64,000 nt of DNA. Origin: an uncultured delta proteobacterium. GTDB taxonomy: Bacteria > Myxococcota > Myxococcia > Myxococcales > Anaeromyxobacteraceae. Where the stretch lies: positions 1 to 64,000 of the forward strand of contig CAWHDZ010000034.1 of the NCBI GenBank assembly GCA_963828255.1, given 5' to 3'. A program made the position numbers and the translations under genes. Under the pieces are notes generated by a model. That model did no database searches and was not told the origin of the DNA. It saw only the letters and a program-made list of their open reading frames with translations. How positions within the stretch are numbered: the first letter of the stretch is position 1; each line of letters starts with the position of its first letter. Of the stretch, positions 26,005 to 32,751 are shown one piece after another.

Positions 26005-26065
26005 CGGCCGGGATCCACTCCCCGCGCGGCAGCGGGTTCGAGTACCAGCCCGCCTCGCCCCCAGG

Positions 26066-26182
26066 TCATTCGAACTGAGCGAGCGGGTCATTCATCCTGA
26101 CTGGATCGGGCCCACGTTCGATCCGGGCCGGGAGCCAACCCGCTGATCTCGTTGGGCTCCCGGTGGTGGCCCGATCGGTGCT
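26066..26182 (+). promoter_or_regulatory. Sigma54-dependent promoter A: two palindromic UAS (26066-26104), linker GGAGCCAACC (26131-26140), -24/-12 box TGGCCCGATCGGTGCT (26167-26182)
   Basis: GG-N10-GC spacing is exact; the whole layout recurs at 31461-31579. Confidence 0.7.
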
Positions 26183-26431
26183 CCAGGGGAGTCCCATGAT
26201 GACCTCGACAGCAGCCGCTTCCCCGCCGTCCAGCCGAGCACCCTTCCGCGCGGCGGCCCGGAAGGGTCCCATCCCGTTCCTCGGAACACAGGCCCCTGCC
26301 TACCTCGCGACCGTCTTCGTCGGGGCCTGGAACGCATCCGGCGTTCGCGTCCCATCGACACGCGAGCACCACGACACGACCGGCCGGTGCGCCGGGTGTC
26401 GCTAGCGACGCCACCAGGACGAGGAGCGGCC

Positions 26432-28927
26432 GTGCCCAGGAAGACCCGGGTTCGCCACCTTCAAAAGACCGGCGCCCTGCAGGACGCCATCTTGAACAGC
26501 GCCAACTTCTCGAGCATCGCCACCGACGAGAAGGGCGTCATCCAGATCTTCAACGTCGGGGCCGAGCGCATGCTGGGCTACGCAGCCGCCGACGTGGTGA
26601 ACAAGATCACCCCGGCCGACATCTCCGATCCGCAGGAGCTGATCGCGCGCGCGAAGGCCTTGAGCGCCGAGCTCTCCACCCCGATCACGCCCGGCTTCGA
26701 GGCCCTGGTCTTCAAGGCCTCCCGCGGCATCGAGGACATCTACGAGCTGACCTACATCCGCAAGGACGGCAGCCGGTTCCCGGCCGTGGTGTCGGTCACG
26801 GCCCTGCGCGACGCGGGCAGCGCCATCATCGGCTACCTGCTGATCGGCACCGACAACACCGCCCGCAAGCAGGCCGAGGAAGCCTTGCTCAAGGCGGGCG
26901 CCCTGCAGAGCGCCATCTTCAACAGCGCCAACTTCTCGAGCATCGCCACCGACGCCAAGGGCGTCATCCAGATCTTCAACGTCGGCGCCGAGCGCATGCT
27001 GGGCTACGCGGCCGCCGACGTGATGAACAAGATCACCCCGGCCGACATCTCCGACCCGCAGGAGCTGATCGCGCGCGCCATGGCCCTGAGCGTCGAGCTC
27101 TCCACGCCCATCACGCCGGGATTCGAGGCCCTGGTCTTCAAGGCCTCCCGCGGCATCGAGGACATCTACGAGCTGACCTACATCCGCCAGGACGGCAGCC
27201 GCTTCCCGGCGGTGGTCTCGGTCACGGCCCTGCGCGACGCGCACAACGCCATCATCGGCTACCTGCTCATCGGCACCGACAACACCGCCCGGAAGCGGGT
27301 CGAGGCCGAGCAGAAGATCCTCGACCAGCGCCTCCGCGACCAGCAGTTCTACACGCGCTCCCTGTTCGAATCGAACATCGACGCGATCATGACCACCGAT
27401 CCATCCGGGATCATCACCGACGTCAACAAGCAGATGGAGACGCTCACCGGCAGCACGCGCGACGAGCTGATCGGCGCTCCCTTCAAGAGCTTCTTCACCG
27501 ACCCGGAGCGGGCCGAGGCCAGCATCAAGCTGGCCCTGAGCGAGAAGAAGGTCACCAACTACGAGCTCACCGTCCGGGCCTGGGACGGCACCGAGACGGT
27601 GGTCTCCTACAACGCGACCACATTCTACGACCGCGGCCGGAGGCTGCAGGGCGTCTTCGCCGCCGCCCGGGACGTCACCGAGCGCAAGCGCCTGGACCAG
27701 GTGCTGCAGGAGAAGAACGTCGAGCTGGAGAGCGCCCGGGCGCTCGCCGAGAAGGCCAACCGCGCCAAGTCGGAGTTCCTCTCCAGCATGAGCCACGAGC
27801 TGCGCTCCCCGCTCAACGCGATCCTGGGGTTCGCCCAGCTGATGGCCTCGGAGGCCCCGCAGCCGACGCCCTCCCAGGCCGGAAGCATCGACCAGATCCT
27901 GCACGCCGGATGGTACCTGCTGGAGCTGATCAACGAGATCCTCGACCTCTCGGCGATCGAGTCCGGAAAGCTGTCGATGTCGGTGGAGCCGGTGCCGCTG
28001 ACCGAGGTCCTGGCCGAGTGCCAGGCCATGATCGAGCCGCAGGCGCAGAAGCGCGGCCATTCCCTCCACTTCCCGCGCCTCGACCCTCCTCGCTTCGTGC
28101 TCGCCGACCGGATCCGGCTGAAGCAGGTCCTCATCAACCTCCTCTCCAATGCCATCAAGTACAACCGGCCGGGCGGAAGGATCGTGGTCGAGTGCACCGC
28201 GGTCACTCCGGCACGGACCCGCCTCAGCGTCCGGGACACGGGGCTCGGCCTCTCCCCCGAGAAGCTGGCCCAGCTCTTCCAGCCCTTCAACCGGCTCGGT
28301 CAGGAGAAGGGCGGCGAGGAGGGCACCGGCATCGGCCTGGTCATGAGCAAGCTCCTGGTCGAGATGATGGGAGGCATGATCGGCGTGGAGAGCATCGTCG
28401 GGGAGGGCAGCGTCTTCTGGTTCGAGCTGGACTCGTCGGCCCCGTCCACGCTGGAACCCGACACGGCTGCGACCCCGAGCGCGGCCGGCGAGAAGGCCCG
28501 GCCCGACGCGCCGCTCCGCACCCTGCTCTACGTCGAGGACAACCCGGCCAACCTCCTGCTGGTCGAGCAACTCATCGCCCGCCGCCCCGACATGCGCCTG
28601 CTCAGCGCCACCGACGGCAACGCCGGGATCGAGATCGCGCGCGCTTCCCTTCCGGACGTGATCCTGATGGACATCAACCTCCCCGGGATCAGCGGCACCC
28701 AGGCCATGCGGGTCCTCCGGGAGGACCCCGCGACCGCGCACATCCCCGTGATCGCGATCAGCGCCAACGCCATGGTGGGCGACATCAAGAGGGGCATCGC
28801 GGAGGGATTCTTCCGATACCTCACGAAGCCCATCCACGTCGACGAGTTCATGGAGGCGCTCACCGTGGCGCTGGAGACCGCGGCAGGGCGATCGGGTGAG
28901 GGTGCACGGGAAGGGGGCAGCACATGA
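26432..28927 (+). CDS. Soluble hybrid sensor histidine kinase, PAS-PAS-PAS-HisKA-HATPase-REC
   Basis: FLSSMSHELRSPLNAILG, QVLINLLSNAIKYN, DTGLG, GTGIGL, YVEDN, ILMDINLP, LTKP; GTG after GAGGAG; no TM seen. Confidence 0.9.
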   Translation: MPRKTRVRHLQKTGALQDAILNSANFSSIATDEKGVIQIFNVGAERMLGYAAADVVNKITPADISDPQELIARAKALSAELSTPITPGFEALVFKASRGIEDIYELTYIRKDGSRFPAVVSVTALRDAGSAIIGYLLIGTDNTARKQAEEALLKAGALQSAIFNSANFSSIATDAKGVIQIFNVGAERMLGYAAADVMNKITPADISDPQELIARAMALSVELSTPITPGFEALVFKASRGIEDIYELTYIRQDGSRFPAVVSVTALRDAHNAIIGYLLIGTDNTARKRVEAEQKILDQRLRDQQFYTRSLFESNIDAIMTTDPSGIITDVNKQMETLTGSTRDELIGAPFKSFFTDPERAEASIKLALSEKKVTNYELTVRAWDGTETVVSYNATTFYDRGRRLQGVFAAARDVTERKRLDQVLQEKNVELESARALAEKANRAKSEFLSSMSHELRSPLNAILGFAQLMASEAPQPTPSQAGSIDQILHAGWYLLELINEILDLSAIESGKLSMSVEPVPLTEVLAECQAMIEPQAQKRGHSLHFPRLDPPRFVLADRIRLKQVLINLLSNAIKYNRPGGRIVVECTAVTPARTRLSVRDTGLGLSPEKLAQLFQPFNRLGQEKGGEEGTGIGLVMSKLLVEMMGGMIGVESIVGEGSVFWFELDSSAPSTLEPDTAATPSAAGEKARPDAPLRTLLYVEDNPANLLLVEQLIARRPDMRLLSATDGNAGIEIARASLPDVILMDINLPGISGTQAMRVLREDPATAHIPVIAISANAMVGDIKRGIAEGFFRYLTKPIHVDEFMEALTVALETAAGRSGEGAREGGST
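26471..27295 (+). repeat. Tandem 426-nt (142-codon) intragenic duplication encoding two near-identical PAS/PAC domains
   Basis: Units start GGCGCCCTGCAG at 26471 and 26897 and end ...GACAACACCGCCCG.AAG; mostly synonymous differences. Confidence 0.92.
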
Positions 28928-29790
28928 TCGGCAAGGCCGAGATCCTCCAGGGAAAGATCCTGATCGTCGACGATCAGAGGGCCAACGTGGCCTTGCTCGA
29001 GCAGATGCTGGGGAATGCCGGCTACGTGTCGGTCACGTCCACCATGGATCCGGGGCAGGTCTGCGCGCTTCACCTGCTGAACCGGTACGATCTCATCCTC
29101 CTGGATCTCCAGATGCCCGGCATGGACGGGTTCCAGGTGATGGAGAACCTGGAGCAGATCGAGACCGGCGGCTACCTTCCCGTCCTCGTGGTCACCGCCC
29201 AGCCCGAGCACAAGGTACGTGCGCTCCGGGCCGGTGCGAGGGACTTCGTCAGCAAGCCCTTCGACCTGGTGGAGGTCCTGCTCCGGGTCCACAACCTCCT
29301 GGAGGTGCGCCTGCTGCACAAGGAGACGAGGAGCCTGTACGACCGGGTCATGGAGGAGCAGAAGGTCTCGGAGCGGCTCCTGCTCGGCCTCCTGCCCCGG
29401 TCCGTCGCCCAGGGCCTGAAGGAACGTCCGGAGACGACCACCGCCAGCGACCTCAACGGACTGGTCACGGAGAGCTATGCGGAGATGACGGTCCTGTTCG
29501 CCGACCTCCTCGAGTTCACCACGTTCTCGGAGGGAGCGAGCGCCGAGGTCCTGAGGGGCGTGCTCGACGACATCTCCACCCGTTTCGACGTCAGCGTCGA
29601 CGCCACCGGCGTCCAGCGGGCCCGGACCATCGGTGACGCCTACCTGGCCTCCGTCGGACTGACCGATCCCGTCGCCATCCACACCATCCGGGTGGCTCAC
29701 AAGGCGATCGACCTGATCGAGGCCGCGGATCGGTTCAACGCGCACAGCCGGCACCAGGTGCGGTTGCGCATCGGCGTCGATCCCGCCGCG

Positions 29791-29796
<6 letters not shown>
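28924..29796 (+). CDS. Response regulator receiver fused to a C-terminally truncated class III adenylate/guanylate cyclase domain
   Basis: ILIVDD, LLDLQMP, FVSKP; SERLLLGLLP, TVLFAD, TIGDAY, RLRIGV, then stop. Confidence 0.8.
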
Positions 29797-31449
<1,653 letters not shown>

Positions 31450-31460
31450 GACCGCTCCCT

Positions 31461-31579
31461 TACTTCGAAATGAATGACATCGCACTTCATATTGACTGAA
31501 TCAGCCATGGCAAGCCGAGAAGGCGCTGGAGCCAACCATTTGAAAACACTTATTCTTGGTTTGTGGTCCGGCCGATGCT
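31461..31579 (+). promoter_or_regulatory. Sigma54-dependent promoter B: two palindromic UAS (31461-31499), linker GGAGCCAACC plus AT-rich IHF-like tract, -24/-12 box TGGTCCGGCCGATGCT (31564-31579)
   Basis: GG-N10-GC spacing is exact; divergent from a sigma54 activator; homologous to 26066-26182. Confidence 0.72.
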
Positions 31580-31656
31580 CAACGAAGGACCAGGGCAGGC
31601 CGCTGCCAGCGGCCCACGCCCCCTCACGCCACGAACCATCACGAATGGAGCAGTGA

Positions 31657-32751
31657 ATGACGATCTCGAGCTTCAACCTCCCCGGACGGGTGGCAGCGTT
31701 GCTGCTGCTCTCCTTCGCCGCCGCCTGCGGGGACACCAGCGACGGGGGCATGGCCACCGGGCCGACGGTCCTGTCCATCACCCCCTTCACCGACGCCACC
31801 GACGTCTCGCTGAACTCGGGCATCAGCGCCACCTTCAGCGAGGCGATGGATCCGGCCACGCTGACCGCGAGCACCTTCACGCTGACCTCCGGCACGGCGG
31901 CAGTCCCGGTCCTGGGCACGGTGTCCTGCTCGAACTCGACCGCGGTGTTCTCGTCGGCCGCTCCGCTCGCGGCCGACACCTCGTACACCGCGACGATCAC
32001 CACCGGGGCGAAGAGCGCCCCCGGCGTCGCCCTGGCGGCGAGCCGCTCCTGGTCCTTCACCACCGGCCGGATGCAGCCGATGGGTCTCCCGGTCATGCTC
32101 GGGACGGCCGGGAACTTCGCCATCCTCGCCAAGAGCGGGATCTCGACCGTGCCGGCCTCGGCGGTCACCGGGAACATCGGCGTCAGCCCCGCCGCCGCCT
32201 CCTCGATCACCGGCTTCGCGCTGATCCCCGACGCCACCACCGCGTTCTCGACCTCAGCGCAGGTGGTCGGGAGGGTGTACGCGGCCGACTACGCGCCGCC
32301 CACCCCGTCGAGCCTGACGATTGCCGTCGGTGACATGGAGCTGGCCTTCACCGACGCGGCCGGGCGCCCGCCCGACGTCACCGAGCTGGGCGCCGGGAAC
32401 ATCGGCGGGATGACGCTGGCCCCGGGCGTCTACAAGTGGGGCACCGGCGTCCTCATCCCCACGGACGTCACCCTCAGCGGCAGCTCGACGGGCGTCTGGA
32501 TCTTCGAGATTGCCCAGGGCCTGACCGTGAGCAGCGCCGCCAAGGTCCTCCTGGCCGGCGGAGCGCTGCCCAGGAACGTCTTCTGGCAGGTCGGCGGCGT
32601 GGTGGTCCTCGGCACGACGGCCCACCTCGAAGGCATCGTCCTGACCCAGACGGCGATCACCCTGGCCACCGGCGCCTCGGTGAACGGCAGGCTCCTGGCC
32701 CAGACGGCCGTCACACTCGACGGCAGCACCGTGGTCGCACCCACTCCGTGA
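31657..32751 (+). CDS. Ice-binding family (DUF3494/IBP-1 fold) lipoprotein with an N-terminal bacterial Ig-like domain
   Basis: Lipobox-like FAAAC; Ig-like ATFSEAMDPAT...YTATITTG...WSFTT; LGTAGNFAILAKSGIS, TGNIGVSP, TLAPGVYKW, VWIFEI, NVFWQV, NGRLLAQTAVTL. Confidence 0.9.
   Translation: MTISSFNLPGRVAALLLLSFAAACGDTSDGGMATGPTVLSITPFTDATDVSLNSGISATFSEAMDPATLTASTFTLTSGTAAVPVLGTVSCSNSTAVFSSAAPLAADTSYTATITTGAKSAPGVALAASRSWSFTTGRMQPMGLPVMLGTAGNFAILAKSGISTVPASAVTGNIGVSPAAASSITGFALIPDATTAFSTSAQVVGRVYAADYAPPTPSSLTIAVGDMELAFTDAAGRPPDVTELGAGNIGGMTLAPGVYKWGTGVLIPTDVTLSGSSTGVWIFEIAQGLTVSSAAKVLLAGGALPRNVFWQVGGVVVLGTTAHLEGIVLTQTAITLATGASVNGRLLAQTAVTLDGSTVVAPTP

Follow-up and report, generated by a model that had tools for sequence, protein, structure and literature searches.

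The 64-kb window analysed here (contig CAWHDZ010000034.1, positions 1 to 64,000) comes from the genome of an uncultured delta proteobacterium of the Anaeromyxobacteraceae (G000; 4.3 Mb, 40 contigs) and contains a gene module built around an activator of the XylR class, which quite probably acts by itself, as a one-component switch, on a small sigma54 regulon whose genes are of general-stress type. Gene identities were assigned with Pfam and NCBIfam profiles, and those given in an initial annotation of the letters alone were upheld by Pfam. On the forward strand, a soluble hybrid histidine kinase with three PAS domains followed by HisKA (H-box SHELR), HATPase and REC domains (26432..28927) is followed by a protein composed of a receiver, a coiled coil and the N-terminal half of a class III cyclase domain (28924..29796; positions 3-107 of the 183 in the Pfam profile). 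The predicted enhancer-binding protein is encoded on the reverse strand (29791..31449) and comprises XylR_N and V4R domains (PF06505, PF02830), an AAA domain with Walker A/B and GAFTGA motifs and a C-terminal Fis-type helix-turn-helix (HTH; PF00158, PF02954), the motifs being kept in homologues. Beyond it, on the forward strand, lies the gene for a predicted lipoprotein (31657..32751; lipobox Cys24) with one Ig-like domain (Big_5) and a full DUF3494 (Ice_binding) domain (PF11999, 245 bits against a cut-off of 28.7). Profile searches of the whole genome gave a single XylR_N match and a single Ice_binding match, namely these two proteins, together with one rpoN and three IHF/HU genes. The module is flanked by genes for an RlmI-like methyltransferase and epmA; plasmid searches returned nothing decisive.

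Two enhancer-promoter units, both on the forward strand, precede the kinase and lipoprotein genes. Unit A consists of a predicted upstream activating sequence (UAS) at 26064..26104 (27.1 bits; palindromic boxes 26066-26082 and 26088-26104), an IHF-like box at 26136..26148 (two mismatches to the IHF consensus, offset -29) and a predicted sigma54 -24/-12 box at 26167..26182 (13.4 bits), 101 nt from the UAS start, which is the modal spacing. Unit B has the corresponding UAS at 31459..31499 (43.9 bits; boxes 31461-31477 and 31483-31499), an IHF-like box at 31533..31545 (one mismatch to the consensus) and a -24/-12 box at 31564..31579 (14.2 bits), 103 nt from the UAS start. Transcription is expected to start near 26193 and 31590, respectively. 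The initial annotation had aligned 26069-26107 with 31464-31502, and its counts proved correct: 26 of 39 ungapped positions match, the identical 10-mer GGAGCCAACC follows after 62 and 64 nt (at 26131 and 31528), and a GG-N10-GC box after 98 and 100 nt (from 26167 and 31564). Local alignment of the two intergenic regions scored 135; the 2000 dinucleotide shuffles averaged 74 and reached 108 at most, none attaining the observed score. The 26/39 window by itself was equalled in 2 of 500 shuffles. As GGAGCCAACC overlaps the IHF-like CAA-N4-TTGA box, it is not a separate element. The proposed 22-bp period of the boxes stood, but a single symmetric TCAnTCA-N3-TGAnTGA used twice did not, since the consensus of homologues is TCCTTCGAATTGAAGG and then TACTTCATTTTGATTG.

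The two units had also been described as a duplicated promoter, a claim that we could not sustain. Their spacer identity (23/60) is no higher than that of A with unrelated homologues (mean 20, maximum 30), and the exact 10-mer, present in 0 of 54 homologues, is the sole hint of copying; beyond it, a recent duplication finds no support, and duplication of the A/B promoter stays unproven on these sequences. The string GGAGCCAAC was likewise rejected as a genome-wide element, as only the two window copies among its 13 matches occur in such a context. Downstream of promoter A, the kinase leader includes a 69-codon ORF (26197..26406, forward strand), which has no Pfam match and no homologue in the fetched loci and is probably not a gene, and a perfect-looking 28-nt palindrome (26240-26267), possibly an RNA hairpin. 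A scan for sigma70 promoters found none.

The enhancer-promoter architecture is supported by its conservation beside homologous activators. Relatives of the sensor region (183 + 344 loci found, 160 kept, 74-85% identity) occur in Myxococcota, Holophagae and, scattered, in other phyla. The 168 loci with at least 70% identity were reduced to 120 by dropping near-duplicates and loci with less than 150 nt upstream, with the window excluded, and the enhancer and -24/-12 matrices were built from homologues only, which avoided circularity of the window boxes. A 41-nt paired UAS was present upstream of the activator start codon in 107 of the 120 loci (5-15 nt away in 105). It is followed by a YGGY-N8-TGC box in 78/120 loci, against 2.5% in shuffles. 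Spacings from UAS to -24/-12 box cluster at 76-81, 88-93 and 98-106 nt, that is, in steps of about 11 bp, with a helical phase coherence of 0.73 at period 11. In addition, 23 of the 54 loci with the longest spacing have an IHF-like box at -29 to -27, where 0.65 would be expected. Judged by this conservation, the predicted paired enhancer, IHF-like box and -24/-12 box are the conserved switch of this activator subfamily.

Two lines of evidence support the proposal that the adjacent activator is the cognate regulator. First, an exact promoter pattern, designed around the consensus and the three own-genome sites, was found in 12/92 family genomes and 27/355 phylum genomes, whereas the reversed pattern used as control was found in none. 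The C-terminal body of the activator (at least 68% identity, at most 54 candidates being scored per genome) is present in 10 of the 12 pattern-bearing genomes, and the pattern in 2 of 75 genomes without the body. Second, a sister XylR/V4R subfamily (L014-L032; 45-55% identity) differs in its HTH and lies beside YceI or hemerythrin genes, and its enhancer period is 20 bp in 15/19 loci, compared with 1/120 loci of the window type. As HTH and enhancer period both differ, the site changes along with the protein. The sister subfamily keeps the pocket His and Trp discussed below, has a LigB-like neighbour and has the look of a regulon for phenolic or redox stress. Autoregulation of the activator, as had been suggested, is plausible, but is expected to be negative: UAS B starts 10-12 nt ahead of its start codon, and the gene has no -24/-12 box directed at it (best score -2.9), which predicts that the activator represses itself from UAS B. 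Negative autoregulation is documented for XylR (PMC3469447).

When the own genome was scanned, both window sites and one further site were recovered far above the rest. Combined enhancer and promoter scores were 58.0 for B, 43.8 for C17:39591, 40.5 for A and 17.7 for the next site, and the maximum in simulated sequence (3 x 2 Mb) was 3.0; the UAS-only matrix ranked B (43.9 bits) best and A (27.1 bits) second. Co-regulation of the kinase operon and the DUF3494 gene, as first proposed, is supported. The third promoter precedes a gene for a 188-residue LuxR-type protein. In G060, that gene takes the place of the divergent target, and in G062 it has the orthologous site. Because this third enhancer-promoter lies on contig C17, and targets differ widely among homologues, the regulon is not self-contained as first described; from these scores, it is predicted to consist in the own genome of three units, the DUF3494 lipoprotein, the kinase operon and the LuxR-type regulator. 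A candidate fourth site, C8:119101 (11.3 + 6.5 bits), was doubtful and set aside.

Several features were observed around the third site. The promoter and LuxR-type gene (C17:39591-40318, equivalent to L193:6592-7319) are followed by a sugar-transferase-like ORF. Divergent from the promoter, a 96-residue, secreted-looking protein of tandem DDTxDWSKKAA repeats is encoded on the reverse strand (L193:6130-6420); it has no Pfam match and no -24/-12 box on its side, and its repeats resemble those of LEA type. Close to the promoter lies a 36-codon fragment of a sigma54 activator (C17:38943-39047; 61% identity), an intact relative of which is located downstream of a promoter copy in G084:C65 (L209). 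A LuxR paralogue (58%) at C3:156697-158058 adjoins a DUF5670 gene and has a 21-bit -24/-12 box, with no enhancer of the window type.

The targets of the switch were derived from the 120 homologous loci, 93 of which contain 124 enhancer-promoter pairs (two or more pairs in 25). First genes were called with a codon model, clustered and named from one representative per cluster, for which 77 proteins were scanned. DUF3494 is the commonest first gene, behind 18 promoters (15 plus 3 with Big_5 starts) in 17 loci of Myxococcota and Holophagae. It is followed by DUF5670 (11), GlsB-like (7), BON and an unnamed 92-residue family (6 each), CsbD (5), SPFH, GroES, DUF4398, YflT and a small membrane peptide (4 each), and RpoH-like sigma factors, pirin and kinases (3 each); others occur once or twice, such as Hsp20, GroEL, DnaK, GrpE, OmpA and PRC. 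The unnamed family (L059:8450-8728, L214) is helical, occurs in 18 loci and has no Pfam match. BON/OsmY, YflT, GlsB/YeaQ/YmgE and lmo0937 (DUF5670) are stress genes. The csbD gene is a direct target of EcfG (PMC7083833). The markers CsbD, BON, YflT, GlsB and DUF5670 are thus found under one regulator across homologous loci, not in the own genome. The cluster representatives included no aromatic catabolic enzyme, in agreement with the earlier remark that no such genes lie nearby, and the lone LigB match belongs to the sister subfamily. The target list appears to be of general-stress type, in place of pollutant-degrading enzymes, in soil and peat bacteria.

These counts bear on a rival explanation, namely a dedicated, self-contained cold or ice module in which the activator serves an ice-binding adhesin and its own kinase. 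Consistent with it are the first rank of DUF3494 among the targets, the presence of the activator body in 11 of the 15 family genomes (of 92) with an Ice_binding match, and the retention of exactly the DUF3494 target in the receiver-fusion loci described below. On the other hand, 106 of the 124 promoters precede other genes, the third promoter lies on another contig, four genomes (G060, G020, G066 and G024) carry the activator with no Ice_binding match, and PF11999 is found in ice-free habitats too (PMC12337378). We consider such a module very unlikely, and the ice-specific purpose gives way to a role for DUF3494 as one of many stress-type targets. The closest solved chains to the window protein are 4nu3 and 9li0; by our own reading of the 4nu3 alignment, its b-face is regular in part, with Thr at the ladder position in three of the five C-terminal rows and Val-Val-Val in one row, and the protein scores below the NCBIfam IBP_CFB cut-off. 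An expansion of DUF3494 (4 to 14 matches per genome) was observed in G082-G087 (genus g11), where several copies have a window-type promoter away from the activator.

The sensor domain was compared with PoxR, MopR and DmpR and with the 120 homologues by alignment. The zinc site (C135, E158, C161, C169) is present in 120/120 homologues and the equivalent of His106 in 108/120, but the position of Trp134 holds Trp in 0/120, with Leu in 105 and Val, Ile or Phe in the remainder; the window protein has Leu. In the sister subfamily, this Trp is kept in 17/19. According to PMC9556785, His106 and Trp134 of MopR anchor the phenolic hydroxyl, and mutation of either, W134A for example, loses the ATPase output. 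As the anchoring Trp is replaced throughout, phenol is unlikely to be the signal, and the conserved His with an aliphatic residue in place of Trp probably accommodates a small, non-phenolic hydrophobic molecule. The window activator also falls below the NCBIfam MobR cut-off (352 bits against 999). A classical aromatic sensor of the phenol or toluene type, whose targets guard the envelope against solvent stress, would account for the MopR/PoxR/DmpR fold, zinc ligands and His, and chaperones, pirin and SPFH would suit solvent stress; the altered Trp134 position and the lack of catabolic enzymes among the first genes scanned make this explanation very improbable. A hydrocarbon-like ligand is conceivable and would also be compatible with the general-stress switch favoured here.

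The kinase and half-cyclase adjoin the activator across two phyla. The first PAS domain of the kinase is 77-93% identical in homologues, and the search for a PAS ligand yielded only faint FixL matches (E 0.004), an atlas search returning PAS only. The tandem PAS repeat of the kinase, with a long insert (window 26462-27310), is 77-93% identical across phyla (87% in Gemmatirosa), occurs in one to three copies and has no solved close relative. The half-cyclase has both metal-binding Asp motifs, and its chain stops before the WGDxVNxASR motif. Class III cyclase activity needs the C-terminal Asn/Arg motif, and the half-cyclase should be inactive alone. It had been called a remnant, but of the 13 loci whose homologue extends into the cyclase part, 11 (two of them near-identical) have the truncated form and two the full length, six truncated proteins ending exactly before WGDxVNxASR; since the short form spans Myxococcota and Holophagae, it is retained rather than decaying. 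Read-through of the stop codon was rejected, as the stops vary (TGA, TAG, TAA) and no cyclase motif lies beyond.

A link between kinase and activator is suggested by relatives whose activator body bears the receiver where the V4R sensor would be. Such fusions make up 87 of the best 120 protein-search matches; their bodies are 71.5-83.7% identical to that of the window protein and have the same HTH, compared with at most 54% for the 33 other activator matches of the own genome. Six related genomes were analysed. In G075, G084, G090 and G091 the order is DUF3494, shared enhancer, kinase and a 504-residue receiver-activator fusion, with no V4R (receiver 68-72% and body 69-76% identical to the window proteins). 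In G047, DUF3494 and its enhancer-promoter lie on a separate contig from the fusion, beside a broken V4R copy, and in G147 no enhancer was found in 9 kb, so that the same enhancer-promoter precedes DUF3494 in five of the six. Retention of both enhancer and DUF3494 target in the fused forms indicates that the activator body reads the enhancer and that the kinase is able to drive that body. In the tree, fused and V4R forms share one clade apart from the sister subfamily. Repeated origin of the fusion was not adopted, a single clade not being rejected (approximately unbiased test, p-AU 0.335), and one or more origins are compatible with the tree. At L150, the kinase, half-cyclase and V4R activator genes are co-directional and 10 nt apart, an arrangement that a single deletion would convert into the fusion. 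Contact of the free receiver with the V4R activator does not follow from the fusions, as the same receiver is present on many outputs.

Alternatively, promoter A and the kinase operon could be passengers on a mobile stress island, A being weak or vestigial and without feedback on the activator. UAS A is indeed the more degenerate of the window's two, a 240-nt unconserved leader follows promoter A, several kinase homologues are without a promoter, the receiver is fused to many outputs, and the GC content of the module genes is slightly below that of the flanks. Against these points stand the three independent elements of A at canonical offsets, the loci L074, L075 and L083, in which the kinase is itself the divergent promoter target, and the persistence of kinase and half-cyclase beside the activator across two phyla. 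We regard the passenger explanation as unlikely.

We therefore favour the activator as the one-component switch of a small general-stress-type sigma54 regulon. As conservation indicates, it would read palindromes paired at a 22-bp period, with the -24/-12 box about 100, 90 or 79 nt further on and an IHF-like box in between. By family analogy, binding of a small ligand in the zinc-stabilised pocket of V4R would release the AAA domain, the activator would oligomerise on the enhancer, and, with IHF bending the DNA, sigma54 polymerase would open the promoter; activator bound at UAS B would also repress its own gene. The kinase operon would be one of the targets; since in relatives its receiver directly drives the same activator body, the operon most likely also feeds into this response as a second input or modulator. 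The DUF3494 protein would protect the envelope as one output of many and would not be what the circuit exists for. Several observations weigh against this reading. A promoter ahead of the kinase is not universal, being found in L074, L075, L083 and the four fusion loci (where the -24/-12 box is weak, 4.7-8.7 bits), and none within 1.5 kb in G060, G079 and G087. The receiver is promiscuous and occurs in further fusions, with cyclases, kinases, GGDEF and MgtE as partners. The own-genome DUF5670, GroES, Hsp20, pirin, SPFH and RpoH-like genes have no enhancer, and 27 of the 124 promoters face an unclassified gene (17) or no called gene (10). In addition, the 68% body cut-off was chosen after the table had been inspected, the genomes are kin, so that counts are not independent, and G062 (90% complete) and G083 (100%) have the promoter with no close activator body found. 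A broader version is possible but doubtful: a general stress response based on sigma54 in Myxococcota and Holophagae, fed by interchangeable V4R or PAS kinase-receiver inputs on one activator body. In the own genome, the receiver-half-cyclase would be a catalytically dead adaptor acting in trans on the V4R activator, by which it would itself be induced in a feedback loop, and DUF3494 would be a general envelope-stress protein not specialised for cold.

For stress genes of these lineages, the regulon supplies a regulator, a binding site and a set of targets that can be put to the test, as well as a handle on what non-catabolic XylR-type sensors detect and on the role of DUF3494 outside permanently frozen habitats. 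Moreover, the natural exchange of V4R for a receiver, with activator and enhancer retained, illustrates cleanly how a one-component system can be rewired into a two-component one. A literature search covering mostly open-access articles returned no paper on the regulon or on a link between a XylR-type activator and DUF3494.

Comparison with known systems places the activator beside XylR, DmpR (CapR), MopR and PoxR (5fru, 5kbe, 6iy8), with which it shares the XylR_N-V4R-AAA-HTH order, zinc ligands and pocket His, as well as a divergent gene with the enhancer beside the activator's own start, an IHF-like box and a -24/-12 target. It differs from them in having no phenol-anchoring Trp (120/120), in its envelope and stress targets instead of catabolic operons, in a sensor swappable for a receiver, and in its Myxococcota and Holophagae hosts. 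The target families resemble those of the SigB, RpoS and EcfG general stress regulons (for csbD, PMC7083833), whereas control is exerted through sigma54 and an enhancer-binding protein, not a stress sigma factor with a partner switch, and the regulon includes DUF3494 and heat-shock chaperones and is small and variable per genome. Similarly, the fused form combines a kinase with REC-AAA-HTH as in NtrB/NtrC-type systems; unlike these, the window has its receiver on a separate half-cyclase protein and V4R on the activator, both forms sharing body clade and enhancer. The lipoprotein resembles type 1 (DUF3494) ice-binding proteins (4nu3, 9li0, 3wp9) in its full PF11999 domain, lipoprotein signal and Ig-like stalk, and departs from them in the incomplete Thr ladder of its b-face and its score below the IBP_CFB cut-off. 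On the sequence evidence, the sigma54 regulon is well supported, and the locus would represent a form of the XylR class with targets of stress type, an altered pocket and a sensor open to exchange.

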